Shown here: positions 3,099 to 63,790 of the stretch, in pieces
Position numbering within the stretch: the first letter of the stretch is position 1
How the letters are laid out: every line of letters starts with the position of its first letter
DNA from: an uncultured delta proteobacterium
GTDB lineage: Bacteria > Myxococcota_A > Polyangia > Polyangiales > Polyangiaceae
Length of the DNA: 64,000 nt
Direction: 5' to 3'
Assembly (NCBI GenBank): GCA_963827955.1
Contig: CAWHDJ010000018.1
Location: 1,309,297 to 1,373,296 of the forward strand
Notes under the pieces: generated by a model
Databases searched by the model: none
Told to the model about the DNA's origin: nothing
What the model saw: only the letters and a program-made list of their open reading frames with translations
Program-made: the position numbers and the translations under genes

Positions 3099-3995
3099 CT
3101 ACGCCCCCGCGGCCCCCCCGCAGACGCGGCACCACGGCAGCCGGACCAGCGTGCACAGCTTGGTCTCGAAGGTGACGAGGTCCTCGATCAGGATGCGCCC
3201 CCCGAGCATCGACCGCGTGTAGCCGGAGACGATCTTGACGACCTCCGTCGCGACCAGGTGACCGAGGAGCCGCGCCATGATCGCGGTCCGCGCGCCGTGC
3301 GCCGTGCGCTCGCCGAGCGGCGGGTTGAGCGCCTCGGCCGACGCGCAGATCCGGCAGGCCGTCCTGCCCGGCACCGTGAGCGGCCCGATCACGGCGCGGG
3401 CCCCGTCGAGGTGCGACCAGAGCGTGCGGACGCCCGCGCGGTGCGCGATGCTCGCGACGCGGCCCGCCTCGGCCACGTCCTCCGGGGCCAGCGCGGGGAT
3501 GAGGAGGCTCGTCCCGGCGTCGATCTTCCCCTCCGCGAGCCGGTCGATCGCGCCGATGCCCGCCGCGCGGAGCTCCGCGACCGCGACGTCGCCCCAGGGC
3601 TCGTACCCGGCCAGGAGCAGGCGCGCGGAGGCGAGCCGCTCCAGGGCCGCCGAGGGAGCGACCGACCAGCGCTGGAGGAACTCCAGTTGCCCGCGGCGGC
3701 TCTCGTCACGATCGTGGTCCGTCACCTCCTCGACGAGCCCGCGCTCCACGAGCCGATCGAGGAAGCGCGATACGCTCTCGGGCGCGTAGCCGGAGAGCGC
3801 CGCGATCACGGCGCCGCGATCGCGCGACCCGTCGAGGAGCGGCACGATCCGCGCCAGGAACGCCTGGGCGTCGGCGCCCGCGACCTGGAAGGTGCCGAGG
3901 TCGGACCGGACGATGACACCGGCCGACGTGGTGGTGACGCTCGCGGAGCTCCGGAGGAGGATGGGTGTCACGGGCGCGCCTCCTCGTCTGCGGGC
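3099..3995 (-). CDS. E1-like (ThiF/MoeB-fold, Ocin-ThiF-like) RiPP partner protein with N-terminal RRE-like extension
   Basis: C-terminal ~300 aa of ORF 3099..4736(-). Rossmann motif LLLAGYEPWGDVAVAELRAAGIGAI, a CRIC...CRVCGG Cys pair at the C-terminus, and a ~140-aa N-terminal domain (MRRTARRR...). It is a paralogue of the E1 domain at 6150-6838. The N-terminus appears in-frame with sagB only because the sagB C-terminus is frameshifted; the true start is probably near 3995. Confidence 0.6.
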   Translation of the reverse strand, partial: ARRRGGAPVTPILLRSSASVTTTSAGVIVRSDLGTFQVAGADAQAFLARIVPLLDGSRDRGAVIAALSGYAPESVSRFLDRLVERGLVEEVTDHDRDESRRGQLEFLQRWSVAPSAALERLASARLLLAGYEPWGDVAVAELRAAGIGAIDRLAEGKIDAGTSLLIPALAPEDVAEAGRVASIAHRAGVRTLWSHLDGARAVIGPLTVPGRTACRICASAEALNPPLGERTAHGARTAIMARLLGHLVATEVVKIVSGYTRSMLGGRILIEDLVTFETKLCTLVRLPWCRVCGGAAGA

Positions 3996-4736
3996 TGTCC
4001 GACGCATACGACGTAGAACGGCTCCTCGTCCTCCGGCAGTTGCAGGAGGGCGCCGAGCTTCCCGATCGTAGAATCCGCCGATCGCGGTCGGTCCGAGCCC
4101 GATCGCCGTGGAGACGAGGTAGATGTTCTGGCCGACGTGCCCGGCGTCGAGGAAGAGGTGCCGATAGCCACGCTGGCCGTACTTCCACATCGTCCGCTCC
4201 CGGATCGCCGTGATCACGACCACCACGTTCGCGTGGCGGGCGACCTCCTGATCCACCAGGAGATCGACCAGGATCGGCTGCGCGAGCCCAGGGACGACGT
4301 GCTCCAGCGCGTGGTCGCGCGCGTCGTAGTGGTAGATGCCGTCGGCGAGCCCCTCCACGGCCTGCGTCGCGACGTAGAGCTCGAGCGGATAACGCCCGCC
4401 GGCCGAGGGCGCCGGCCGGCGGAACCCCTCCTCGCCCGGCCCGCCCCGCGTGACGCGGACGCCGTACGACGCGTACAGGAGGCGCCCGAGCGTCGGGAGG
4501 GGCATGGGCCGGAGCGTGTAGTTGCGGACCGAGCGCCTCCGCTCGAGCGCGGCGCCGAGCGGCATGTCAATCGCGAAGTCCCTCCCGGGCAAGGCCGTGC
4601 GCGCGGCGCCGGGGTAGGTGCGGAGCTGCGCGGGCTGCCGGTCGAGGTCCATGATCGGCGCGATGATGCGCGCGCGCTCGTGAGAGGAGTGTGTGTGGAA
4701 GAGCCGGGCGACGTCCGCCTCGGTACGCGTTGCCAT
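3966..4736 (-). CDS. SagB-type (McbC-like) FMN-dependent azoline dehydrogenase; apparent frameshift near 4050
   Basis: The N-terminal 230 aa of ORF 3099..4736 carry nitroreductase/SagB motifs (RRSVRNYT, GGRYPLELYV, YHYDARDHAL, YRHLFLDAGHVGQNIYL). The conserved C-terminus IGKLGALLQLPEDEEPFYVVCVGQPADEEARP* is in another frame (ORF 3968..4171(-)). The frame switch falls at the GGFYD|IGKL junction. Confidence 0.75.
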
Positions 4737-4745
4737 CGCTTTGCC

Positions 4746-6838
4746 TCAGGCCATGGGGTGGGGATCGGGGTTGATGCCGCGGGAGGCCATCGCCGAGAGG
4801 CGCGGGTTGCCGAGCCGCTCGAGGCCATGGCCGAAGTGGATCTGCTGGAAGCGCGCGCCGAGGGCGCGGGCCACCCGGATCGGCGTGCCGGCGGAGATCC
4901 GGCGATGTCACGTCGACGATGGCGACGCGGAGCCCCGCGGCGGCGAGGCGCCTGCACAGCACGTCGGACGTGACGGCCTCGGGCTCGGGCAGATCGGCGG
5001 CCGCGACCTCGCCGCCTGCGCCCAGGAAGGCGAGCGCCCCCACGCGGTGCTTCGGCACGTAGTAGAGGGCATGGTCTTCGAGCGTCTGCACGTCCTCGGG
5101 ACGCTGCGGGATGGTCCGCTTTCCCTCCGCGACGAGCCGGCACATCCAGGGCCCGAGGTGGCCCTGCTCGAGCAGCGCCCGCGCGATGGCGGTGCGCGGC
5201 CGGAGGTGCGCGGCCATGGACACCGTGGCGCCGGGCCACCCCTCGCCGTCGCCGTACCCGACGCAGATCACGACGGGGATCCCCGCCCCCACCTCGAGCA
5301 GGTACAGCTCGACCCGCGTCCCGCGCTCCTCAATCTGGCGCGCCGCCTCGCGGGCCGCGGCGTCGACCGTCCGGTCGAGGAGCACGCGCCGCCCCGGGCG
5401 CCGCGTCAGCCACGCGATCATGAAGGCGTCGCGCTCGCAGAGCTCCAGCGCGGCCGAGAGCGCGGCGCGGTCGAGCGTCGGCCCGGCGGCCAGGCCGTTC
5501 GAGGTCACGTCGCAGAAGCGCGCTTCCGGGGTGACGGGGAAGCTCATGTAGGTGGGCAGCGCGGGGACCATCACGGGAGCGCGCGAGTCGAGCCAGAAGC
5601 CGCGCACCCAGTCGATCGTCGTGTACGGAGAGAGGCGCGCGAACGGGAAGCCCGGCTGGGCATACTGGCGGTCGCTGTAGAGGCCGAGATCCTGCGGAGA
5701 GAGGAAGTCGCCCTCCATCTCGGCCACGGCGGCGCGGAGCAACGAAGGGTGGTGGAAGCGGCTCGCCGAGTAACGCTCGACCGCCTCGCCCACGGCGCTC
5801 ACCAGGGCGCGCAGCGCGGTGGTGCCCTTGCCGGAGCCCAGCTCGGGGCCGGCGCAGCACGCCGGCACATCGCCCTCTGCCACGCGCGAGAGGACCGCGG
5901 AGGCCGCGATCGGTACGTCCGGCTCCAGCGGGGACGCCGCCGCGCGGACGACGAGGCCCCGGACGATGCCGGTGCGTCGATCCACGACGCCGGCCAGCAT
6001 GCGCCGCAGCTCCTCCGGATCGCGCGCTCGGTCCATGTCCTCGCCGTTGCCCTCGGGCGCGGCGGCGCCGAAGTGGTACGCCCCGCCGCAGACCGAGCAG
6101 TGCGGCATGCGCAGCACGGCGTGGAAGCTCCGCCTCCATCGTGACCAGGTTCTGGACGCAGAGCCGGCCGAGGAGGGGATGGGATCCGGGGCGCGCGAGC
6201 AGGTCGAGCACCGAGAGCGCGAGGGCATGTCCGAGCAGGGCGGGCATGGACGCGAGGTAGGTGCGGGCACGGGCGCGCGGCCGATCGGAGAGCCACGCGG
6301 CGTGGAGGGCGTGTTCGAGATCGAAGCTCGCGCTGGCGGCGAGGCGCCGGAGGCGACAGCACTCCCAGCACGCCGTCTTTCCCGGCACGACCGCCGGCCC
6401 GACGACCGCGTCGAGGCCGTCGAGGTGGGCGCCGATCGAGGCGAGAGAGGCCCGCTCGGCGAAGCGTGCGACGCTTTGCAGCGCGTGCAGATCGTCGCCC
6501 GGCAGCGCGGCGACGATCAGGTCCCAGCGCGCGTCGGGAAGGGCGAGGGAGCGATCCTGGTCGATCGCCAGCGGCCCCGCGGTGACGACACAGCGTGGCG
6601 CGGCCTCTGCCAGCGACGCGCGGAGCGCCTCCGCGCGCCCTCGCCCGAGGTCCTCTTCGCCGAAGAGGCGGGCATACGCCCGATCGTCGGCGGTGACCTC
6701 CCGGTCGTCGAGGATGTGGAGCGCGCCGAGCCCCGCCGCGGCGAGGTCGGTGGCTGCGACGGCTCCCCATGGCTCGACGCCGCAGAGGAGGACACGCGCG
6801 TGAGAGAACCTTGATTCGATGGACGATGACGTGGACAC
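4746..6838 (-). CDS. E1-like-YcaO fused azoline cyclodehydratase (PatD/TruD-like architecture); two apparent frameshifts
   Basis: The E1-like Rossmann domain lies in ORF 5330..6838(-): ARVLLCGVEPWGAVAATDLAAAGLGALHILD and GKTACWECC, running to ...LVTMEAEL. The sequence continues in the ORF 4567..6270 frame as HAVLRMPHCSVCGG... followed by the YcaO domain (GSGKGTTALRALVSAVGEAVERYSA, ...DRAALSAALELCERDAFMIAW). The YcaO C-terminal consensus GTPIRVARALGARFQQIHFGHGLERLGNPRL...NPDPHPMA* lies in a third frame. Frame switches are near 6140 and 4885. GTG start at 6838. Confidence 0.75.
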
Positions 6839-8802: not shown

Positions 8803-10158
8803 TCAGCGCCCGTCGACGAAGGTCTCGTACTTGCCGTTCGCCTGCCGCGGGATCGGGGCAGGCCCGGTGAACCTCAGCCGGAAGGGGTGGCCGAGCGCCT
8901 CCTGGATCCGCGCGCCGCTCGCCTGCTCCTCCTCGGGGCCCAGATCGCGCTCGCGCGTGAACCGCACCTCCATCGCGTCCGGCCCCTGCTGGATGACCTG
9001 AATCCACTCCACGTCGGGGATCGCGGCCCACAGCGCGCCCACGTCCGGCCACGCCCGGCGCCCGTCCGGCAGCGTGACCAAGTTTCGCCGCCGGCCGAGG
9101 AGCCGCTCGATCACCGGCAGCCCGCGCCCGCACGGGCAAGGCGCGCCCACCTCCGCGTAGTCTCCGATGGCGTACCGGATGAGCGGCATGGCGAAGTTGT
9201 GCAGGCTCGTCAGCACCACACGCCCGATCTCGCCGGGCCGCGCGGGTAGCCCCTCCTCGTCGAGGATCTCGACGAGGACCGATTCGGACTGCACGTGGTA
9301 GTGCTCGTGCCGCGGGCACTGGAGCGCGACGAAGCCCAGCTCCTCGCAGGAGTACACGTCGCGCACCGGCACGCCCCACGCCTCGCGGCAGGCCTCGCGT
9401 ACGTCCGGAGTCAGAGGCTCTCCGTACGTGTGTACGGCCCGGAGGCCGGGCAGGCGGATCTTCTCTCGCTGCGCGTACCGGGCGAGGGCGCGGGTGTTGC
9501 TGGGATACGAAAGGAGGTAGTGCGGGCGCCGGGCCTCGATCACCTCCATTTGCCGAGGGATCGGCATGAGATGATAGAGCACCGTCACCGGGCCCGTCTT
9601 GCAGACCACCGGCGACATGAGCCCCCAGCTCGGTAGATCCTGGACGGCGAGCGGGTCCGGCGCGTAGCGCCCGGAGCGGATGGCGACGAGCCGCCCGTCG
9701 AGATCTCGCTCGTGCCAGAGGTCGTCGCGGAGCGCGAGGGTCCGCCAGAACAGGCCGGTCACCTCCGTGCACACCACCTCGAGGGGCTCGCCCGTGGATC
9801 CCGAGGTCTTGTTCCGGTACGTCCTGCCGTGCGCGAGCGGGACGGCCCGGCTCTGGATCTCGTCGTGGTGCTCCCGGATGTCCTGCTTCGTGAGCAGGGG
9901 AATCCGCCGCCACGCATCCTTCGTCACGGGCCCATGTCCGTCGCAGCCGGCGGCCGCGAGCCGGCCCCCGTACCACGGCACGGTCGACGAAGCGTGCTCG
10001 AGGAGCTTCGCGAGCTGCCGAAGCTGGCGAGCCTCGATCTGCTCGGCAGGCAACCACTGGCTGCGTTCGAGCTGGAACTCCATGGAGAGGAGCGTCGAGT
10101 CCTCTCCCGTCACGATGGCAGGCCAGACGACCTCGGGGATACACGACCAGAGATTCAT
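8803..10158 (-). CDS. phenylacetate-CoA ligase (PaaK)/F390-synthetase family adenylate-forming enzyme
   Basis: C-terminal 451 aa of ORF 8803..11340(-), starting at ATG 10158 (MNLWSCIPEV). AMP-binding motif TSGSTGEP. It is in-frame with the upstream TetR region only because there is no stop codon between them. Confidence 0.8.
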   Translation of the reverse strand: MNLWSCIPEVVWPAIVTGEDSTLLSMEFQLERSQWLPAEQIEARQLRQLAKLLEHASSTVPWYGGRLAAAGCDGHGPVTKDAWRRIPLLTKQDIREHHDEIQSRAVPLAHGRTYRNKTSGSTGEPLEVVCTEVTGLFWRTLALRDDLWHERDLDGRLVAIRSGRYAPDPLAVQDLPSWGLMSPVVCKTGPVTVLYHLMPIPRQMEVIEARRPHYLLSYPSNTRALARYAQREKIRLPGLRAVHTYGEPLTPDVREACREAWGVPVRDVYSCEELGFVALQCPRHEHYHVQSESVLVEILDEEGLPARPGEIGRVVLTSLHNFAMPLIRYAIGDYAEVGAPCPCGRGLPVIERLLGRRRNLVTLPDGRRAWPDVGALWAAIPDVEWIQVIQQGPDAMEVRFTRERDLGPEEEQASGARIQEALGHPFRLRFTGPAPIPRQANGKYETFVDGR

Positions 10159-10283
10159 GTCACGATCACGCCTTCGCGAGCCCACGCGCAACATGGGCCG
10201 AGCCCGCCGCAGCGTCGATTGGGGGCCGCCCGCGCGAGGCGGGCGAACGTGGATTCGGGACGAAGGCAGAAAAGGGCGAGCGC

Positions 10284-11091
10284 TCAGCCCGAACGGCGCC
10301 GAGAGGTCGTGGGGCCCGCTCCGCGGGCCCGGGGTCCAGGGCTCGCTTGCGAGCCCGCCTGGCGAGGCGGGCCGCTTGCGGCCCCATCGTGACCGGTGCG
10401 CTCGGCGATGGGCTGCGCCGCGACGCCCGTGGCTCGGGTGACCGCGTCGTAGAGCACGAGCTTCAAGAGCTCCACCAGCTCCGCCTTCCCCACGTCGCGC
10501 CGTGCCACCCAGTCGATCGACGTCGCCTCCACGAACCCGATCCACCCGCGCAGCGCGATCCGCACGAGCGGCCCCGGGAAGCTCGGTGGGCATCCCCTCG
10601 AAGATGCGCTCCGCGAACGTGCTGCGCGTCTCCTCCAGGATGGCGGCGACCTCGGGATCCGAGCCGATGCCCCCGCGCATCAGCGCCACGTACGCCTTGC
10701 CGTGCCGCTCCACGAAGGCGAGGTACGTCCCGAGCCCGCGCCGCAGCCGCTCGTCCGGCGTCCCCGGGAGGACCATCGTCGTGTCCTCGAGGAGCCGCTT
10801 CGCCGCGTGCTCGAGCGCGGCCACGTAGAGGTCCCGCTTCGTCGGGAAGTAGTGGTAGAGCAGGCCCTTGGAGACGCCGGCCGCGCGCGCCAGGTCGTCA
10901 ATCGACACCTCGTCGTACGATCGCTCGCTGAACATGGCGAGCCCGAGCGAGAGGAGCTGGGCGCGGCGCTCGTCCACGTCGAGCCGCGCCCGCGGACCGC
11001 CTCCGCTCCTCTCCGGCGGGCGCTGCGAGGCGGGCTTCGCCGCCTCCCGCGTTCGCGGGCGGGGCGGCGGCGAGGACGCGCGTCGGGCCAT
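10284..11091 (-). CDS. TetR/AcrR family transcriptional regulator (apparent frameshift near 10560)
   Basis: The HTH VSIDDLARAAGVSKGLLYHYFPTKRDLY lies in ORF 8803..11340 from the M at 11091. The ligand-domain tail LRGWIGFVEATSIDWVARRDVGKAELVELLKLVLYDAVT lies in ORF 10284..10565(-). Confidence 0.7.
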
Positions 11092-26020: not shown

Positions 26021-26336
26021 ATGACCAAGCGCAAGCGCACCCTCGCGCGCGCCGAGGACCGCGCCCGCGTCAGAGATCGCCAGGGACCTCGAAAAGCTCG
26101 CGCTCCTCGGGCCCGGGGGCGGTCCCGAGCGTGCAATCCCCATCACCTCGCCGGCCGAGGTCGAGGTCCTCGCCCGCGCCACGCCCTGCCCCGTCTGCCA
26201 GGGCGAGGTGCGGTTCGAGGAGCACACGGCCGAGACGCACGGGGGCGTGCGGGTGCGCGTGGCCCGGGTGGCCTGCAAGGTGTGCAGGCGGCCCTGGGCG
26301 ATCTACTTCCGGCTGAGCGGGGACGCGCTCAACTAG
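26021..26336 (+). CDS. small zinc-ribbon protein (apparent frameshift near 26070)
   Basis: ATG at 26021 (MTKRKRTLARAEDRARV). The remaining ~85 aa are in the +1 frame: EIARDLEKLALLG...TPCPVCQGEVRFEEH...VACKVCRRPWAIYFRLSGDALN*, with two CxxC pairs. That frame has no start codon after its upstream stop. Confidence 0.45.
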
Positions 26337-26337
26337 A

Positions 26338-26535
26338 GCGGCGTGCGTTTGCATTGGGTACGCACCTACCGAACCGCGAGCGCGAGCGAGCGGGTGCCAG
26401 AAGGCGCGACGCTTTCGTGCCCTCGCATGCGTAGCGCTACAGGCAGCGCGACGCGGGCAAGGGCGTGGCGCGTAGGCGCCCTCTGGCACCCGCTCCCTGG
26501 CGGTCGCGGTTCGGTATGTACTCATCCCGAACGCA
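26338..26535. repeat. ~200-bp imperfect palindrome (large stem-loop)
   Basis: Outer arms ggcgtgcgtt..taccgaaccgcgagcg / cggtcgcggttcggta..aacgcacgcc. Inner arms gtgccagaaggcgc / gcgccctctggcac. Confidence 0.6.
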
Positions 26536-26542
26536 CGCCGCT

Positions 26543-26760
26543 CTAAATCAACGAGCGCGATCCTCGTTCAAGGAGCCGCTGAGCAACGTATGGAACCCCG
26601 GGCGTGAGCCCGCGGACCGGAGCCGCATGCGTCAGCACGCGGAGGCCGCGGTACAGCCCCCTGACGTCATGGTCCCCGCGCTCACGCGCGAGGCTCCGGT
26701 CCGCGGGCTCACGCCCGTGGGTTCCATCGTGGTGTCGGATCGCGCTCGGCCATTTCAGGG
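26543..26760. repeat. REP/MITE-like palindromic element pair (family shared with 32800..32961)
   Basis: Copy 26543-26620 (ctaaatcaacgagcgcgatcc...tatggaaccccgggcgtgagcccgcgg) and an inverted partial copy 26695-26760 (ccgcgggctcacgccc..ggttccatcg..gatcgcgctcggccatttcagg). Near-identical in sequence to the hairpin element at 32.8 kb. Confidence 0.7.
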
Positions 26761-32799: not shown

Positions 32800-32961
32800 G
32801 GCTCTGCCATTTCAGGCGTTATCCCGACGAGGGCCCGCGCCCGATGGTCGGCTAAATCACCGAGCGCGATCCTGACACAACGATGGAACCCGCGGGCTCA
32901 CGCCCGGGGTTCCATACGTTGCTCCCGGCTCCTTGAACGAGGATCGTGCTCGGTGATTTAG
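32800..32961. repeat. REP/MITE-like hairpin element (same family as 26543..26760)
   Basis: gctctgccatttcagg...ctaaatcaccgagcgcgatcctgacacaacgatggaacccgcgggctcacgcccggggttccatacgttgctcccggctccttgaacgaggatcgtgctcggtgatttag. Two arms in inverted orientation. Confidence 0.7.
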
Positions 32962-33289: not shown

Positions 33290-34150
33290 TCGCGGCCCTG
33301 TGGAGCAAAGCGGGAGCGATGACCAGCGGAGCTGGAGCGATGCGGAGCGAAGCGGGTGCGATGCGGAGCGAAGTGGCTGCGATGCGGAGCGGAGCGGGGG
33401 CGATGCGGAGCGGAGCAGGGCCGCTGGGGAGCGAAGCAGGATTGCTGGAGGAAGGGAGATGGAATCGATGAGGAGGGAAGCAGGATCGCTGGGGAGCGAA
33501 GCGGGTGTGATGCGGAGCGAAGCTGGATCACTGGGGAGTGAAGCGGGGGTGCTGCGGAGCGGAGCGGGATCGCTGCGGAGCGGAGCGGGATCGCTGCGGA
33601 GCGGAGCGGGATCGCTGCGGAGCGGAGCGGGATTTCTGGGGGAGCGAAGCTGGTTTGCTGGGGAGCGAAGCAGGTGCGCTGCGGAGCGGAGCGGGGGTGC
33701 TGCGGAGCGAAGCGGGGGTGCTGGGGAGCGGAGCGGGGGCGATGGGGAGCGAAGCGGGTTTGCTGGGGAGCGAAGCGGGTTTGCTGGGGAGCGAAGCAGG
33801 TTTTCTGGGGGAGCGGAGCGGGTTTGCTGGGGAGCGAAGCCGGATTGCTGGGGAGCGGAGCGGGTGCGATGCGGAGCGGAGCGGGTGCGATGCGGAGCGA
33901 AGTGGGTGCGATGCGGAGCGAAGTGGGTGCGATGGGGAGCGGAGCGGGGGCGATGGGGAGTGAAGTGGGTGCGCTGGGGAGCGAAGTGGGTGCGTGGGGG
34001 AGCGGAGGGGGTGCGATGCGGAGCGGAACGGGTGCGATGCGGAGCGGAACGGGTGCGGTGCGAAGGGGAGCGGGAGCGATGGGGAGCGGGGCGGGCGCGA
34101 TGCGGAGCGGAGCGGGGGCGAAGCGGAGCGAGAGCGGAAGGGACGACCCC
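33290..34150. repeat. 21-bp minisatellite, ~40 tandem units (gcggagcgaagcgggtgcgat family)
   Basis: Head-to-tail units with sub-variants (gatgcggagcg / gctggggagcgaagcgggtttgct / gctgcggagcggagcgggatc). There are no intervening unique spacers. All six frames are open. Confidence 0.85.
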
Positions 34151-46272: not shown

Positions 46273-46311
46273 CTCGCCGCCGAGGCAACCCGACGATAGG
46301 AACTTTAGTGC

Positions 46312-48011
46312 TTGACGCAGGAGCCCTCGGTCGCCAGGATGCCGGCCATGACGGACTTCGAGACGTCTCCCGACCGCTACGTGCACTGGAAGCTCTCCAC
46401 GGACGGCGCCGTCGCGCGCCTCGCGCTCGCGGTGCAGGAGGAGCGTCCCCACGTGCCGACTCACGATGGGGGCTCCGCCCCCAAACCCCCGGGCTACCGC
46501 CTCAAGCTCAACTCGTACGACCTCGGCGTCGACATCGAGCTGGCGGACGTGGTGCAGCGCCTTCGCTTCGAGCACCCGGAGGTGAAGGCGGTCGTCGTGA
46601 CGTCGGCGCTGCCGAACGTGTTCTGCGCCGGCGCGAACATCATGATGCTCTCGGCCTCGACGCACCCGTTCAAGGTCAACTTCTGCAAGTACACGAACGA
46701 CACCCGCTGCTCGATCGAGGACGCGAGCGCGCACTCGGGCCAGCGCTGGATCTGCGCGGCGAACGGCACGGCCTCGGGCGGCGGCTACGAGCTCGCGCTC
46801 GCGTGCGACGAGATCGTCCTGGTGGACGACGGCAACTCCGCGGTGTCGCTGCCCGAGGTGCCGCTCCTCGGCGTGCTGCCGGGCACGGGGGGGCTGACGC
46901 GCCTCGTCGACAAGCGCAAGGTCCGGCGCGATCTCGCGGACGTGTTCTCGACGCTGGCCGAGGGCTGCAAGGCGAAGAAGGCCCTGGAGTGGAAGCTCGT
47001 GGACGCGGTGTTCTCGCGCTCGAAGTTCGAGGCTGGCGTGAACGAGCGCGCCGCGAAGGCGGCGGCGAGGCCGTCGAAGAAGGAGGGGGCGAAGGGCATC
47101 CGGCTGCTCCCGCTCGCGCCGGCCGTCTCGGACTCGAAGATCGAGTACCGGCACGTCACGCTGGAGCTCGACAGGCCCCACCGCCTCGCGACGCTCACGA
47201 TCCGCGGTCCCGAGGGCGCGCCGCCCTCCTCGGCGTCGGCCGTCCACGAGCTGGGGAGCGACTTCTGGTCGCTCCGCGCGATGCGCGAGCTGGACGACGC
47301 GCTCTGCCACCTCCGCTTCGACTGCCCCGAGATCGGCCTCGTGCTGATCAAGACGGTCGGCGACACCGGCAACATGCTGGCGTGGAGCGATTTTCCGGCG
47401 GCGCACCGCGACGACTGGCTGGTGAACGAGATCGTGCTCCACACGGCGCGCACGCTCCGTCGCCTCGACGGGATGGCGAAGAGCCTCTTCGCCGTCGTCG
47501 AGCCGGGGAGCTGCTTCGCGGGCGAGCCTTCGAGGTCGCGCTCGCGTGCGACCGCATCTACATGCTGAACGACGCGAGCCGCCCGGTCACGGTCGCCATC
47601 GGCAAGCTCGGCGCGGGCACGCTCCCGATGCAGAACGGCCTCTCGCGCCTCGCGTCGCGGTTCCTGGGCGACCCCGGGCGCGCGGCGCGGCTCATGGACG
47701 AGCGGGGCACGTTCGACGCCGAGGCCGCGGTGGAGGCAGGGCTCGTGACGGTCGCCCCCGACGAGATCGACTGGGAGGACGACCTGCGGCTCGCCATCGA
47801 GGAGCGCGTCTCCCTCTCCCCCGACGCGCTCACGGGCATGGAGGCGTCGCTGCGCTTCGGGGGGCCGGAGACGACGGACAGCAAGATCTACGGGCGGCTC
47901 ACCGCCTGGCAGAACTGGATTTTCACGCGCCCCAACGCCACCGGCGAGAGCGGCGCGCTCAAGCTCTTCGGGCAGCCGGAGCGCCCCAAGTTCGACTGGA
48001 GGAGGACCTGA
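46312..48011 (+). CDS. boxC: benzoyl-CoA-dihydrodiol lyase (2,3-epoxybenzoyl-CoA dihydrolase), crotonase superfamily (apparent frameshift near 47520)
   Basis: The N-terminal 400 aa are in ORF 46312..47568 (FETSPDRYVHWKL...). The C-terminus is in ORF 46308..48011 (...IYGRLTAWQNWIFTRPNATGESGALKLFGQPERPKFDWRRT*). Confidence 0.75.
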
Positions 48012-48013
48012 CC

Positions 48014-49426
48014 ATGGCCATCGACCTTCAAGCCAAGATCCCGAACAACGTCGACCTGGCGAACGATCCCAAGCTCCAGCGCGCGCTCGAGCACTGGCAG
48101 CCCAAGTACATCGACTGGTGGATGGACATGGGCCCGAGCGACTTCGCGGGCAACGACATCTACCTCCGGACGGCGATCGGCGTCGGCAAGGGCGGCTGGG
48201 CGAACTTCGGGTACGTGAAGATGCCGGAGTACCGCTGGGGCATCTTCCTCGCGGAGCCGGAGCCGGAGCGGAAGATCCATTTCGGCGATCCCGTCGGGAC
48301 GCCGGCCTGGAACGTGGTCCCCGGCGAGCTGCGCCGCCTGCTCCGCCGCCTCGTCGTCACGCAGGCGGACACCGAGCCCGCGAGCGTCGAGCAGCAGCGC
48401 CTGCTCGGGCACACGGCGCCCTCGCTGATCGACCTCCGCAACCTCTTCCAGGTGAACGTGGAGGAGGGCCGGCACCTCTGGGCCATGGTGTACCTGCTCC
48501 ACAAGTACTTCGGCGCCGACGGCCGCGACGAGGCGGAGGACCTGCTCCGTCGCCGCTCCGGCAACCCCGACAACCCGCGCATCCTGCAGGCCTTCAACAA
48601 GCCCGTCGAGGACTGGCTCACGTTCTTCTGCTTCACCGCCTTCACCGACCGTGACGGCAAGTACCAGCTCGCGGCGCTCGCCGAGAGCGGCTTCGACCCG
48701 CTCGCGCGCTCCACGCAGTTCATGCTCACGGAGGAGGCGCACCACCTCTCGGTCGGCGAGAACGGCGTGGGCCGCGTCGTCGAGCGCACCGCCCAGCTCA
48801 TGAAGGAGGGGACCGACCCGCGCAAGGTCGGCGCCATCCCGCTCGACATCATCCAGAAGTACGTCAACGACTGGTCGTCCTCCAGCAACGACCTCTTCGG
48901 CGGCGAGGACTCGACCAACGCGGCCGAGGCCTTCTCCCTCGGCGTGAAGGGCCGCTACCGCGAGGGCGACGGCCTCTACAAGGACCCGAAGGCGCTCGAC
49001 CAGGTGTACACGACCCAGGTCGAGCGGGACGGCAAGCTCGGTACCGTGGAGATCCCGCTCCGCCGCGCCATGAACGCGCTCCTCCTCGACTCGTACCACG
49101 CCGACTGCGCGCGCATCGTCGACCGCTGGAACCGCACGCTCGCCAAGTACGGCGTCGACACCAAGATCACGCTGCCCAGCCTGCGCTTCAACCGCCAGCA
49201 GGGCATCCACGCGGGCAAGAGCTACAACCCCGAAGGCCAGCCCATCTCGGCCGAGGAGTTCGCGAGGCGGAAGGCCGAGTGGTTCTCGACCGACGAGGAC
49301 CGCGCCTACGTGAAGAGCTGCATGGTGAAGGTGCACGAGCGCGGCAAGTTCGCGAACTGGATCGCGCCCCCGCACGCCGGCATCAACGAGCAGCCGGTCG
49401 ACTACGAGTACGTTCAGTTCCACTAG
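48014..49426 (+). CDS. boxB: benzoyl-CoA 2,3-epoxidase (oxygenase) component B, diiron
   Basis: Intact 470-aa ORF. The N-terminus MAIDLQAKIPNNVDLANDPKLQRALEHWQPKYIDWWMDMGP is nearly identical to characterised BoxB N-termini. Confidence 0.85.
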   Translation: MAIDLQAKIPNNVDLANDPKLQRALEHWQPKYIDWWMDMGPSDFAGNDIYLRTAIGVGKGGWANFGYVKMPEYRWGIFLAEPEPERKIHFGDPVGTPAWNVVPGELRRLLRRLVVTQADTEPASVEQQRLLGHTAPSLIDLRNLFQVNVEEGRHLWAMVYLLHKYFGADGRDEAEDLLRRRSGNPDNPRILQAFNKPVEDWLTFFCFTAFTDRDGKYQLAALAESGFDPLARSTQFMLTEEAHHLSVGENGVGRVVERTAQLMKEGTDPRKVGAIPLDIIQKYVNDWSSSSNDLFGGEDSTNAAEAFSLGVKGRYREGDGLYKDPKALDQVYTTQVERDGKLGTVEIPLRRAMNALLLDSYHADCARIVDRWNRTLAKYGVDTKITLPSLRFNRQQGIHAGKSYNPEGQPISAEEFARRKAEWFSTDEDRAYVKSCMVKVHERGKFANWIAPPHAGINEQPVDYEYVQFH

Positions 49427-49482
49427 TTGACGATGGGGGGGCTCCGCCCCCCCCAAACCCCCCGAGAGGGGTTGGAGGTTCG

Positions 49483-49821
49483 ATGCAGAGCGGTAAGCGG
49501 CTCGTGTACGTCTGCGAGGGCGGCGATTGCAGCGAGAAGGGGTCCATCGACCTCCACGCCGAGCTCGGGGACATGCTCCACGAGCGTGACAAGGACGGGA
49601 CGAACCGGCTGCGGAAGTACCCGTGCTTCGGCGGCTGCGAGCACGGTATCAACGTGGTGCTCTTCCCGGACCGCGTCTTCTACAGCAAGGTCCAGAGCTC
49701 CGATCTGCCCGAGATCGTCGAGCACCTGACCGGCGACGGCGAGCCCGTGAAGCGGCTCACGGGCTGCGTGGCGAAGGACGTCGAGCAGATCGTGTGGGAT
49801 CTGCTCGACACCGGGTTCTAG
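49483..49821 (+). CDS. thioredoxin-like [2Fe-2S] ferredoxin (NuoE-like)
   Basis: ATG at 49483 preceded by ggagg. Cys ligands CEGGDC...CFGGCEHG. Confidence 0.7.
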   Translation: MQSGKRLVYVCEGGDCSEKGSIDLHAELGDMLHERDKDGTNRLRKYPCFGGCEHGINVVLFPDRVFYSKVQSSDLPEIVEHLTGDGEPVKRLTGCVAKDVEQIVWDLLDTGF

Positions 49822-49849
49822 TCCGCAACCGGATTGAGAGCCGGAATTT

Positions 49850-49950
49850 CAACGCAGAGACGCAGAGACGCAGAGACGCAAAAAGGCAAAGGAGAGAGAG
49901 CTTTGATTTTTCCGCTTTTTTGCGTCCCTGCGTCTCTGCGTCTCTGCGTT
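49850..49950. terminator. AT-rich giant hairpin (35-bp stem, one mismatch) between the NuoE-like and NuoF-like genes
   Basis: caacgcagagacgcagagacgcagagacgcaaaaa-[31-nt loop]-tttttgcgtccctgcgtctctgcgtctctgcgttg. It contains a (cagagacg)x3 internal repeat. Local GC is far below the ~70% background. Confidence 0.4.
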
Positions 49951-49994
49951 GAAAATTCTTCGTCTCCAAACCGCTCGGTGCTCCAGGGATCGTC

Positions 49995-51202
49995 ATGGCG
50001 CTCCTCCTGACCCGCCCCCCCGACGCCGAGCCCGAGTGGTTCGACGACTACCTGAGTTTCGGCGGCTACGCCGCGCTCTCCCAGGCGCGCGCAGGCTCGC
50101 CCGACGCGGTGCTCGAGGCCGTGCGCGCGTCCGGCTTGCGCGGGCGCGGGGGGGCGGGGTTCCCCGCGTGGCAGAAGTGGGAGCTGGCGCAGGCGTCGTC
50201 CTCACCCGCCCACCCGACGAAGCACGTGGTCGTGAACGGCGGAGAGCACGAGCCGGGCAGCCGCAAGGACCGCTTCCTCGTGGCGCGCTACCCGCACCGC
50301 GTGCTCGAGGGGGCCGCCCTGTGCGCGTTCGCGACCGGCGCGTCGTCCATCGTGCTCTACCTGATCGAGGACATGGCCGACGCCATCGGGGCGGCCCGCC
50401 GCGCGATTGACGAGGCCACGGCGGCGGGGCACCTCGCGGGGCTCGACGTGAAGGTCGCGCTCGCGCCCACCACGTACGTCGCGGGAGAGGAGACGGCTGC
50501 GCTCGAGGTCATCGAGGGCAGGAAGGCCTGGCCTCGCAAGAAGCCGCCGTTCCCCGGCAAGGTGGGCCTCTTCGGCCAGCCGACCACGGTGCAGAACGTC
50601 GAGACCATGGCGTGGGTGGCCGGCATCGTGCGCCACGGGCCGGCGTGGTTCTCGCCCGGCGCCATGCTCTGCACGCTCGACGACAGCTTCGCGCGGCCGG
50701 GTCTCGTCGAGGTGCCGCTCGGCACCACCCTGCGCGCGCTGGTCGAGGACCACGGCGGAGGTACGCGCGGTGGCCGCCCGGTCAAGGCGATCCTCCCGCG
50801 CTGTCGAGCGCCTTCCTGCCGGCCTCCGCGCTCGACACGCCCATGACCCACGAGGCGATGCGCGCCGCCGGCTCGAACCTGGGCTGCGGCGGCGTCTCGG
50901 TCGTGGAGGAGGGCACGTGCATCGTGGAGCGCGCCCTCGGGATCGCGAACTTCTTCAAGGCCGAGCAGTGCGGGCAGTGCCCGCCGTGCCGGATGGAGAC
51001 CGCGACGATCGCCGCCGTCTTCCAGAAGGTGGCCGCGGGGGAGCCGGGAGACTACGCGGCGCAGGTCGAGAAGATCACGGCGTTCGCGCGCGGCAAGGGG
51101 AACTGCAGCCTGATCGAGATGGCGGCGGCGCCCGCGCTCTCGGCGCTCCGCCTCTTCCCCGGCGACTTCTCGGCGCACGCCGCCACCGGGCGCTGCCCTT
51201 AG
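49995..51202 (+). CDS. NuoF-like NAD(P)H-binding FMN/[4Fe-4S] flavoprotein (apparent frameshift near 50760)
   Basis: RGRGGAGFPAWQKW and SLBB region in ORF 49995..50846. 4Fe-4S motif CGQCPPCR and the C-terminus in ORF 50612..51202. Confidence 0.7.
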
Positions 51203-63194: not shown

Positions 63195-63409
63195 GCCGGG
63201 CCGATGGTAGCGCGGGGGCGGGGGCGCTTGCGAGGAGAGCCGGCCGAGGGGATAGATTGGGGATGGGGCAAGCGGCGACTGCCACGCCCATCTCCGGCGG
63301 GCCGCCGAGCCGGGAGGCGGACGACGGGGGCGCTGGTTACACCTCCTCGTCGGCTACCGATGCCGTCGAGCGCGAGCACTTCGAGCCTCCCGCCCGCCGG
63401 GAGCGCCGT

Positions 63410-63790
63410 CCCGTCCCCAGGCGCGCCGTCCCGTCGCCGGGAGCGCCTTCCCGTCGCCAGGCGCGCCTTCCCGCCGGCAGGCGCGCCTTCTCGCCGGCAG
63501 GCGCGCCTTCTCGCCGCCAGGCGCGCTTTCCCGTCGCCAGGCGCGCCTTCCCGCCGGCAGGCGCGCCGTCCCACCGGCAGGCGCGCCTTCCCGTCGCCAG
63601 GCGCGCCTTCTCGCCGCCAGGCGCGCCGTCCCGCCGCCGGGCGCGCCTTCTCGCCGCCAGGCGCGCCTTCCCGCCAGCAGGCGCGCCTTCCCGCCAGCAG
63701 GCGCTCCTTCGGCCTGGCAGGCGCTCCTTCGGCCTGGCAGGCGCTCCTTCGGCCTGGCAGGCGCTCCTTCCGCCGGGAGGGCGCGCCTGT
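63410..63790. repeat. 21-bp minisatellite, ~18 units (caggcgcgccttcccgccggc family)
   Basis: Tandem units with point variants (…cgccgtcccgccgc… / …gctccttcggcctggcag…). A different unit from the 33.3-kb array, but the same 21-bp period. Confidence 0.85.

Follow-up and report, generated by a model that had tools for sequence, protein, structure and literature searches.

The window (the whole 64-kb stretch of DNA analysed here) contains a long, nearly perfect hairpin between two electron-transfer genes of one operon. Is this structure part of the operon, shaped for its regulation, or is it a piece of foreign DNA, and if so, of what kind?

An insertion in a conserved operon

The hairpin lies between a gene for a small 2Fe-2S protein and a NuoF-like gene. 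The features of this region, numbered along the window, are:

49483–49821, + strand: upstream gene, a 112-residue thioredoxin-like [2Fe-2S] ferredoxin; stop codon TAG at 49819–49821
49822–49994, no strand: intergenic stretch with the insertion, 173 nt (1–11 nt in orthologous loci)
49825–49981, no strand: widest span the element may have, with GCAACCGG... and ...CGGTGC as the two ends of an imperfect inverted repeat; boundaries uncertain
49835–49852, + strand: left outer segment TGAGAGCCGGAATTTCAA, common to the sister copies, where the alignment gives TGAAGAGC(AGG)CCGGAATTTCAA
49853–49884, + strand: core of the P (purine) arm, three CGCAGAGA units and a degenerate fourth, CGCAAAAA
49885–49916, no strand: loop region, partly self-paired; the minimum-free-energy (MFE) fold leaves about 9 nt as the terminal loop
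49917–49948, + strand: core of the Y (pyrimidine) arm, units TTTTTGCG, TCCCTGCG, TCTCTGCG and TCTCTGCG; C49927 lies opposite A49874
49949–49958, + strand: right AT-rich flank TTGAAAATTC, which pairs with GGAATTTCAA (49843–49852) save for one bulged A
49985–49989, + strand: possible ribosome-binding site AGGGA, 5 nt upstream of the NuoF-like ATG
49995–51202, + strand: downstream NuoF-like gene (Complex1_51K; FMN, SLBB and 4Fe-4S domains); ATG at 49995

A repeat search places the hairpin arms at 49847–49887 and 49914–49954. Each arm is 41 nt long; the two are 95% complementary and separated by 26 nt, and the flanks GGAATTT and AAAATTC extend the stem to about 43 bp. The original prediction, a long stem with a single mismatch, was therefore correct and slightly understated. 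The mismatch is A49874–C49927, which corresponds to the G/A difference read between the arms; in addition, one A is bulged in the AT-rich flanks. Each arm is built of three to four tandem CGCAGAGA octamers, for which TRF reports a period of 8, 3.6 copies and matches of 100% and 95%. Folding energy, proposed as a check, agrees: the RNA of 49822–49994 folds with −96.1 kcal/mol on the + strand and −93.6 kcal/mol on the − strand. Dinucleotide shuffles of the + strand average −53.7 kcal/mol (z = −10.1), and none of 200 is as stable. The outer inverted-repeat pairing (49825–49981) is present in the MFE fold. The predicted island of lower GC content in a background of about 70% is also seen; with 0.53–0.55 in the island and 0.63–0.80 in its surroundings, it is AT-rich merely in relative terms.

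The stem had been judged longer than a terminator needs, and this holds. An intrinsic terminator requires a short GC-rich stem-loop and an immediate U-tract. Here, on the + strand, UUCGUCUCC follows the stem and, on the − strand, GGCUCUCAA does, neither a proper U-tract, and a scan of 49300–50300 returned 0 terminator-like sites. Like intrinsic (bidirectional) terminators, the element has a GC-rich stem between A-rich and T-rich runs, often just past stop codons. Unlike them, it has a stem of three to five times the required length, with a sequence that phyla have in common; the T-run does not adjoin the stem, and the window copy lies upstream of a gene that needs read-through. No sigma-70-like promoter was called around the hairpin. 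Rfam gave 0 matches at the gathering threshold over the whole window, and a scan by E-value returned solely generic long-hairpin models of miRNA precursors (for example, 51 bits against a threshold of 184, and 50.6 against 100).

Relatives of the operon were found with the repaired NuoF-like protein (76–86% identity). Six orthologous loci have the same gene order: an enoyl-CoA hydratase (ECH), a PaaA/C-like protein of 470 residues, a 2Fe-2S protein of 111–112 residues and the NuoF-like protein. The window's 2Fe-2S protein matches Pfam PF01257 at 5.7e-05, just under the curated cut-off. In all six loci the spacer between the last two genes is 1–11 nt long; in the window it is 173 nt, close to the 170 bp first estimated for the gap between the NuoE-like and NuoF-like genes. 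Because the six orthologous sites have 1–11 nt, the hairpin is an insertion of foreign origin, as its composition had suggested.

The exact ends of the insertion are less defined. The right-most bases before the start codon, AGGGATCGTC-ATG, are similar to the short spacers of the relatives, such as gccccgatcATG in L234. By comparison with that spacer, the AGGGA at 49985–49989 probably belongs to the ancestral short spacer. The trinucleotide TCC flanks the element at 49822–49824 and 49982–49984, a weak candidate for a 3-bp target duplication that depends on where the boundaries are drawn. On weak evidence, an ancestral spacer of 13 nt could have received an element of 157 bp and gained a 3-bp duplication. 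Two properties of a MITE are present: terminal inverted repeats enclose a short non-coding core, and the six empty orthologous sites constitute a presence/absence polymorphism.

The NuoF-like gene is frameshifted. Compared with three orthologues, one nucleotide is deleted near 50798 (50795–50800), changing CCGGCG to CCGCG; the orthologues read ATCCTCCCGGCGCT and the window, missing a G, ATCCTCCCGCGCT. The truncated product of 283 residues is in the database as P0046. This may be a real pseudogene or an assembly error; if real, the operon may be decaying. The set of four genes at 46308–51202, kept in the six related loci (probably Polyangia/Myxococcota), lies outside any complex I operon. It may encode an oxygenase with its own electron-transfer pair, including a stand-alone NuoF-like flavoprotein.

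Sister copies at unrelated sites

A search for further copies, suggested with the prediction, found none in the 64-kb window, where the hairpin is single, and succeeded in a metagenome. Using the arm plus its lineage-specific flank as the query (GGAATTTCAACGCAGAGACGC), the scan of metagenomes returned 13 loci, eight of them from one soil sample (Ga0210388), on contigs of 66–73% GC. These eight sister copies have in common an element of about 150 nt, outside which the sequences are unrelated, indicating that the copies occupy unrelated sites. The element consists of a left end (C)TGAAGAGCAGGCCGGAATTTCAAC, arms made of octamer arrays, a loop GCAAAGAGAAAAAGAACAAAGAATTTCTGGGTCT and a right end ...GTTGATCTCTCCTCTCTTCTTTTTTCCGGACAGC.... 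The left end in the window, TGAGAGCCGGAATTTCAAC (from 49835), matches the sister copies, and the window loop is most similar to that of copy L159. A blastn search with the hairpin against PLSDB plasmids and INPHARED phages gave no match, possibly owing to the low-complexity filter.

The arms of the sister copies contain one to four octamer units, often in unequal numbers within one copy, and their folding energies range from −39 to −73 kcal/mol. It follows that the arrays slip and that perfect pairing is not kept. In six of six sister copies a long open frame upstream runs in frame into the terminal TGA, which acts as its stop codon; several copies occupy the gap between convergent genes. TGA is found again at the right boundary in four of the six, which is suggestive of a target duplication, though short and boundary-dependent.

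Other repeats in the window

The window also has two copies of another, unrelated inverted-repeat element, at 26545–26720 and 32852–32961, with the ends CTAAATCA(C/A)CGAGCGCGATCCT. It has a 22-nt inverted repeat (95% complementary, 32852/32940) and an inner palindrome GGAACCC(G/C)GGGC(G)TGAGCCCGCGG. Adjoining it at 26334–26545 are nested long inverted repeats, with arms of 44 nt (89% complementary) and 33 nt (79%), which could represent a composite repeat or encode a structured RNA. About 20 tandem copies of a 20-nt unit, TCCCGCCGCCAGGCGCGCCT, lie at 63388–63788 (87% matches; the period is no multiple of three), in an array that is self-complementary as well. Another array, at 33325–34137, holds 38.5 copies of the 21-nt unit AGCGGAGCGGGTGCGCTGCGG and is probably a coding repeat of the heptad type.

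A family of octamer arms across phyla

The core of the arms is conserved across phyla. The exact 20-mer CGCAGAGACGCAGAGACGCA occurs at at least 120 loci in one-genome-per-species contigs from at least 15 phyla. Its hosts are found in Acidobacteriota, Planctomycetota, Verrucomicrobiota/Kiritimatiellia, Lentisphaerota, Bacteroidota, Cyanobacteria, Chloroflexota, Gemmatimonadota, Nitrospirota, Spirochaetota, Desantisbacteria, Desulfobacterota, Myxococcota-like 'Deltaproteobacteria', and Alpha-, Beta- and Gammaproteobacteria. Most matches are metagenome-assembled genomes; long-read chromosomes are also among them, as are the cultured isolates Sphingomonas phyllosphaerae, Thiohalocapsa marina, Nostoc and Dolichospermum, and plasmids of Gemmatirosa and Bacteroides. 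In IMG/VR, the 20-mer is present in 25 viral contigs and the unit variants CGCAGAGG and CGCAAAGA in 40 and 29, compared with 0 and 3 for two permuted octamer arrays of identical composition.

Across 215 arms the consensus reads A-rich run, TTT, A, A/C, (CGCAGAGA)x3, and 180 of these arms have exactly three units beside an A-rich/T-rich flank. We define the P module as two lineage-specific bases followed by (CGCAGAGA)x3, or NN(CRCARAGR)x3 in degenerate form, and the Y module as its reverse complement. The window arms fit inverted NN(CRCARAGR)x3 modules with the purine arm 5'. Inverted pairs with the purine arm first number 75 (loops of 5–190 nt); apparent singlets and tandem arrays occur too, and about one locus in eight has a second element within 8 kb.

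The two or three bases just outside the array differ by lineage: sphingomonads have CG, one planctomycete has GC, and the others show AC or AA. Between paired arms they match by Watson-Crick rules in 93%, 86% and 66% of cases at positions −2, −1 and −3, compared with 45%, 35% and 31% after shuffling. This covariation at −1 to −3 is best read as lineage-specific subfamilies on a common core, not as selection on the RNA. Inside the octamer arrays no compensatory covariation was found. As a sign of strand-specific selection on the RNA, mismatches of the G-U and A-C types (98 vs 83) tell little: they are mixed within single hairpins, and their counts are biased because the search demanded one perfect arm.

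All-against-all clustering of 3678 ORFs identified no transposase family recurring within about 4 kb in 120 loci; the recurrent neighbours are ubiquitous families only (response regulators, ABC transporters, SDR, epimerases). The 3-kb P...Y pair in L059 encloses a CHAT-TPR gene and no transposase. These statistics depend on crude ORF calls. By the same calls, arms often lie 0–20 nt past stop codons; since the AT-rich flanks terminate any open frame, we do not rely on this proximity.

Several known signals were considered for the arms. An outward promoter in the AT-rich flank, an idea prompted by phage contigs with Y arms 15–21 nt before an ATG, does not hold family-wide: no fixed offset has a TAnnnT hexamer in more than 6% of arms, and a gene start lies within 80 nt ahead of just 27% of them. 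In the window hairpin, TTTCAAC ... GTTGAAA agrees at six of seven positions each with the integron attC ends (RYYYAAC ... GTTRRRY, with extrahelical bases). Because positions −1 and −2 vary (AC, AA, CG, GC ...), the AAC/GTT is not conserved in the family, and attC membership is rejected. Sites of the parS half-site, Haemophilus USS (TGCGGT plus AT flank), ops and boxA types were ruled out, as the flanks vary among lineages.

Some copies depart from the common arrangement. In six phage contigs (L165, L180, L183, L190, L197 and L204; GC 0.59), modules of the form CTCTGCGCCTCTGCGCCTCTGCGCGA(T/G)AA lie 15–21 nt before many ATGs, and the start codons downstream have no Shine-Dalgarno sequence. These modules look like extended −10 promoters of near-leaderless mRNAs in that phage group; the pattern is not general to the family. 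One of four hairpins within 8 kb in L108 (4967–5204) has a different, GC-rich palindromic element in its loop, so loops tolerate secondary insertions. Single modules are apparently in frame within coding sequence in L033 (~6440–6520, in a predicted signal peptide, ...FLFSASLRLCGLVLLFAVAAAAQA) and in L015 (~4958–4982, in a charged linker), recalling the Rickettsia RPE insertions. In a Draconibacterium genome (L074, 1290–1730), a tandem array with a period of 47 nt repeats a Y-type module plus an AT-rich spacer; the spacers are identical, so the array is not CRISPR-like.

A literature search with 13- to 18-mers of the octamer core returned nothing relevant, and no paper or Rfam family describing the family was found. 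To judge from these searches, the cross-phylum family of octamer-repeat arm pairs, tied to the GxxExxY genes described below, appears to be undescribed.

Small genes between P and Y arms

When the P and Y arms are far apart, a small gene can lie between them. Its product is a GxxExxY protein (TIGR04256, 1e-41; PF13366 PDDEXK_3, 4e-40). Among the seeded loci, the gene is found in L018 (Kiritimatiellia), in L066 (a sphingomonad) and, beside a hairpin, in L112 (Acidobacteriota). L049 has a pseudogene broken into three pieces. The 127-nt loop of the L083 hairpin is a C-terminal remnant of the gene (E = 7e-10), which makes L083 an intermediate between a filled and an empty cassette. Gene decay and deletion take place between the arms. 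The gene is present in just 5 of some 130 seeded elements. The association also holds in reverse: six gene loci retrieved by the protein alone show modules, four of them in cultured isolates.

Plasmid-borne GxxExxY genes of isolates have a P-type module before the gene in four of four cases and a Y-type module after it in three of four. In Gemmatirosa kalamazoonensis, full hairpins lie on both sides of the gene, which is frameshifted; the modules are CACAGAGA ... TCTCTGTG in Bernardetia sp. and CACAGAGGACGCAGAGGACACGGAGG ... CTCTGTGACCTCTGTGTCCTCTGTGGTG in Bacteroides finegoldii. The only homologue found on a viral contig (L236) is embedded in arrays of the related module CGCAGATAA. In L247, a sphingomonad-type gene lies between fabD and fabG in the order TAG, GGTTCG(CGCAGAGR)x3, 6 nt, GTG...stop, P-loop-Y (...CTCTGCGCGAACC), fabG. 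The gene of Sphingomonas parapaucimobilis, also between fabD and fabG, has a degenerate P module only. The same fabD–fabG site thus holds GxxExxY genes in two different sphingomonads (L247 and L251), through either an old insertion or a site preference.

At a Kiritimatiellae locus with the order Wzy_C, GxxExxY and UDP-glucose dehydrogenase, ten assemblies (L237–L246, ~780–1200 and 1580–1830) have two to nine tandem P modules upstream of the gene and one to three Y modules downstream. Module copy number varies rapidly at this locus, and two assemblies have runs of N exactly there.

Other small genes are enclosed in the same way. On the viral contig L224 (64% GC), P...Y pairs precisely frame them in the order P, Shine-Dalgarno, ATG...stop, Y, suggesting that the modules may serve the expression or recombination of cassettes generally and not one nuclease. 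At 2415–2692, 3906–4614, 8883–9130 and 10240–10500 of this contig, the purine-arm module itself supplies the Shine-Dalgarno-like sequence, and the complementary arm follows a few bases past each stop codon. The P/Y modules are associated with GxxExxY genes, and inverted modules delimit small gene cassettes, most consistently those of GxxExxY genes.

GxxExxY/PF13366 homologues number more than 8000 among the matches listed. A census of PD-(D/E)XK proteins describes PF13366 as 'function unknown; multiple transfers'. Our search for literature linking GxxExxY or PF13366 to repeats found none, and tblastn with GxxExxY against phages gave no match.

An HMM search of the window copy, its loop (49885–49916) included, and of the eight sister copies found neither a GxxExxY gene nor a remnant of one. 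The window copy is therefore the gene-less form, and its derivation from a cassette is by family resemblance.

Origin of the window hairpin

Based on these observations, we favour the interpretation that the window hairpin is a gene-less, non-autonomous (MITE-like) copy of a palindromic P/Y insertion element that encloses a GxxExxY gene elsewhere. That it was inserted into the conserved operon is plain from the orthologous sites; its relationship to the cassettes is, in our judgement, probable. The element entered the tiny spacer of two formerly tightly coupled genes, in a conserved operon of ECH, PaaA/C-like, 2Fe-2S and NuoF-like genes. Its full-length relatives would be the P and Y modules around a small GxxExxY gene (PF13366, PD-(D/E)XK fold), so that the window copy would stand to the cassettes as a MITE stands to its parent element. 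The hairpin may be a gene-less derivative of such a cassette or its empty site. A trans-acting factor could recognise the octamer arrays and mobilise or convert P...Y units, and the conservation of the arrays would reflect this recognition. The obvious choice for this factor is the GxxExxY protein with its PD-(D/E)XK fold, which would act as a nuclease in mobilisation or homing; recombination with the arms as homology would be another route. We know of no endonuclease activity or homing of GxxExxY proteins. The cassettes resemble free-standing homing-endonuclease genes and phage 'morons' in that small genes, of nuclease fold or other, lie between conserved host genes (fabD/fabG, wzy/ugd, radA/...), with their own short flanking signals and frequent decay into pseudogenes. 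To our knowledge, inverted octamer arrays around the gene have no counterpart in described homing systems.

In the host, the element would be transcribed within the operon mRNA as an RNA duplex of more than 40 bp. Such a duplex is a generic substrate of RNase III in bacteria and a barrier to exonucleases; long stems that serve as RNase III substrates are known from Correia and ERIC elements and from T7 mRNAs. The RNA stem is probably an element of double-stranded RNA processing or stability, or a weak barrier to transcription. Because it separates genes that are 1–11 nt apart in the orthologues, any translational coupling between them is lost. The host probably tolerates the insertion, without selection for any function. 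For the family, the data agree equally well with a role at the RNA level, in which P/Y pairing would place the cassette mRNA inside a long-range stem.

The likeliest alternative is that the hairpin belongs to the classical MITEs, derived from a DDE transposon such as an IS5/IS1031-like element with a TNA target; its outer imperfect inverted repeats would be the transposase sites and the octamers internal passengers. The sister copies do have common outer ends, TGAAGAGCAGGCCGG ... CCGGACAGC(TCTTCA), with TGA at the left end in six of six and at the right boundary in four of six; the window has TGA at 49835 and the possible TCC/TCC duplication. Recognition by a transposase, however, predicts the opposite of the pattern in the family, where lineages differ in the outer ends and phyla share the inner octamer core. 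Many arms are singlets or stand in tandem arrays, and no transposase family recurs within about 4 kb in the 120 loci. We therefore consider this origin unlikely. There is a broader likeness to the RNA-hairpin MITEs (Neisseria Correia, enterobacterial ERIC, Rickettsia RPE): these too are palindromic intergenic insertions of 100–170 bp, occasionally in frame in genes, co-transcribed and in many copies, with non-autonomous copies beside gene-carrying relatives. In contrast to them, the conserved part here is the internal array of three octamers and not the termini, and the core is common to phyla and not to one genus. No DDE transposase or clear target duplication was found here, the candidate partner being a PD-(D/E)XK protein of 125 residues.

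Could the hairpin instead have evolved for this operon, to serve as an RNase III site between the cistrons, to stabilise the mRNA or, as an attenuator, to set the 2Fe-2S:NuoF ratio? Its place inside the operon, on the transcribed strand, and its extreme stability would suit such a role, as would the established cutting of long stems by RNase III. Yet the hairpin is absent from all six orthologous operons, the same element is found at unrelated sites, often between convergent genes, and it is without a U-tract. The unequal unit numbers in the arms of sister copies speak against selection for a precise structure. Taken together, the empty orthologous sites and the dispersed sister copies rule out a local regulatory hairpin as the origin, and we regard a host regulatory structure as quite improbable; the inserted hairpin may have been co-opted for a host function later.

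REP elements were named in the original prediction beside a MITE, and the part of this that stands is a repeated family of MITE- or REP-like kind, with eight sister copies and hundreds of arms elsewhere. Membership in REP/BIME does not stand: there is no GTAG or CGTC tag, a single arm has no palindrome, and no RAYT gene is near. REP units with such tags, and a super-family motif in several phyla, have been described (Di Nocera et al., 2013, PMC3733652), as have REP/REPIN doublets (Bertels and Rainey, 2011, PMC3116915). The architecture of a REPIN is similar, with modules of 25–30 nt as inverted, head-to-head doublets, singlets and clusters, mostly extragenic, and the CGTC-type REP super-family is likewise without a dedicated transposase; the GTAG/CGTC super-families are the nearest described concept to the P/Y modules. 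REP units, however, are small imperfect palindromes with a 4-nt tag (5' GTAG, or a terminal CGTC with an 8–9-bp stem, a 4–5-nt loop and a CCA tail). The position matrix of 215 arms consists of direct octamers; it has no GTAG and no small stem-loop within a single module, and CGTC is merely part of the octamer, so that a tag with a stem of 8–13 bp and a loop of 4–5 nt is lacking. Furthermore, REP sequences are species-specific and the octamer core is present in at least 15 phyla, and the 120 loci yielded no Y1 transposase inside about 4 kb. We therefore regard mobilisation of a REP/REPIN doublet by a RAYT (Y1) transposase as very improbable. Finally, that the cross-phylum signal is an artefact of assembly chimeras or contamination, or a chance low-complexity repeat, is scarcely credible: the matches are mostly metagenome-assembled genomes, but cultured isolates and long-read chromosomes are among them, every match sits in host-typical flanks with lineage-specific variants, and the permuted controls gave 0 and 3 viral contigs against 25–40.

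Implications

Beyond the window copy, which we take to be a gene-less P/Y element, we offer a wider proposal tentatively, as one that could well be wrong. The inverted (CRCARAGR)x3 P/Y modules may constitute an undescribed super-family of short interspersed elements, whose core would be the recognition or homology site of GxxExxY proteins. The latter would be the mobilising or homing nucleases of mini-cassettes of about 0.5 kb, and the hairpins gene-less derivatives or empty targets. If this is true, one 24-nt core is repeated in the intergenic DNA of groups ranging from Acidobacteria to Cyanobacteria, Bacteroidota, Planctomycetota and Myxococcota, and of their phages; the REP and MITE families described to date are, in contrast, species-specific. 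The proposal would also provide a first functional handle on a very large protein family, GxxExxY/PF13366. P/Y elements split operons (fabD–fabG, 2Fe-2S–NuoF), create very stable RNA stems and differ in copy number between strains; for these reasons, they matter for the prediction of operon expression and for the assembly of metagenomes.
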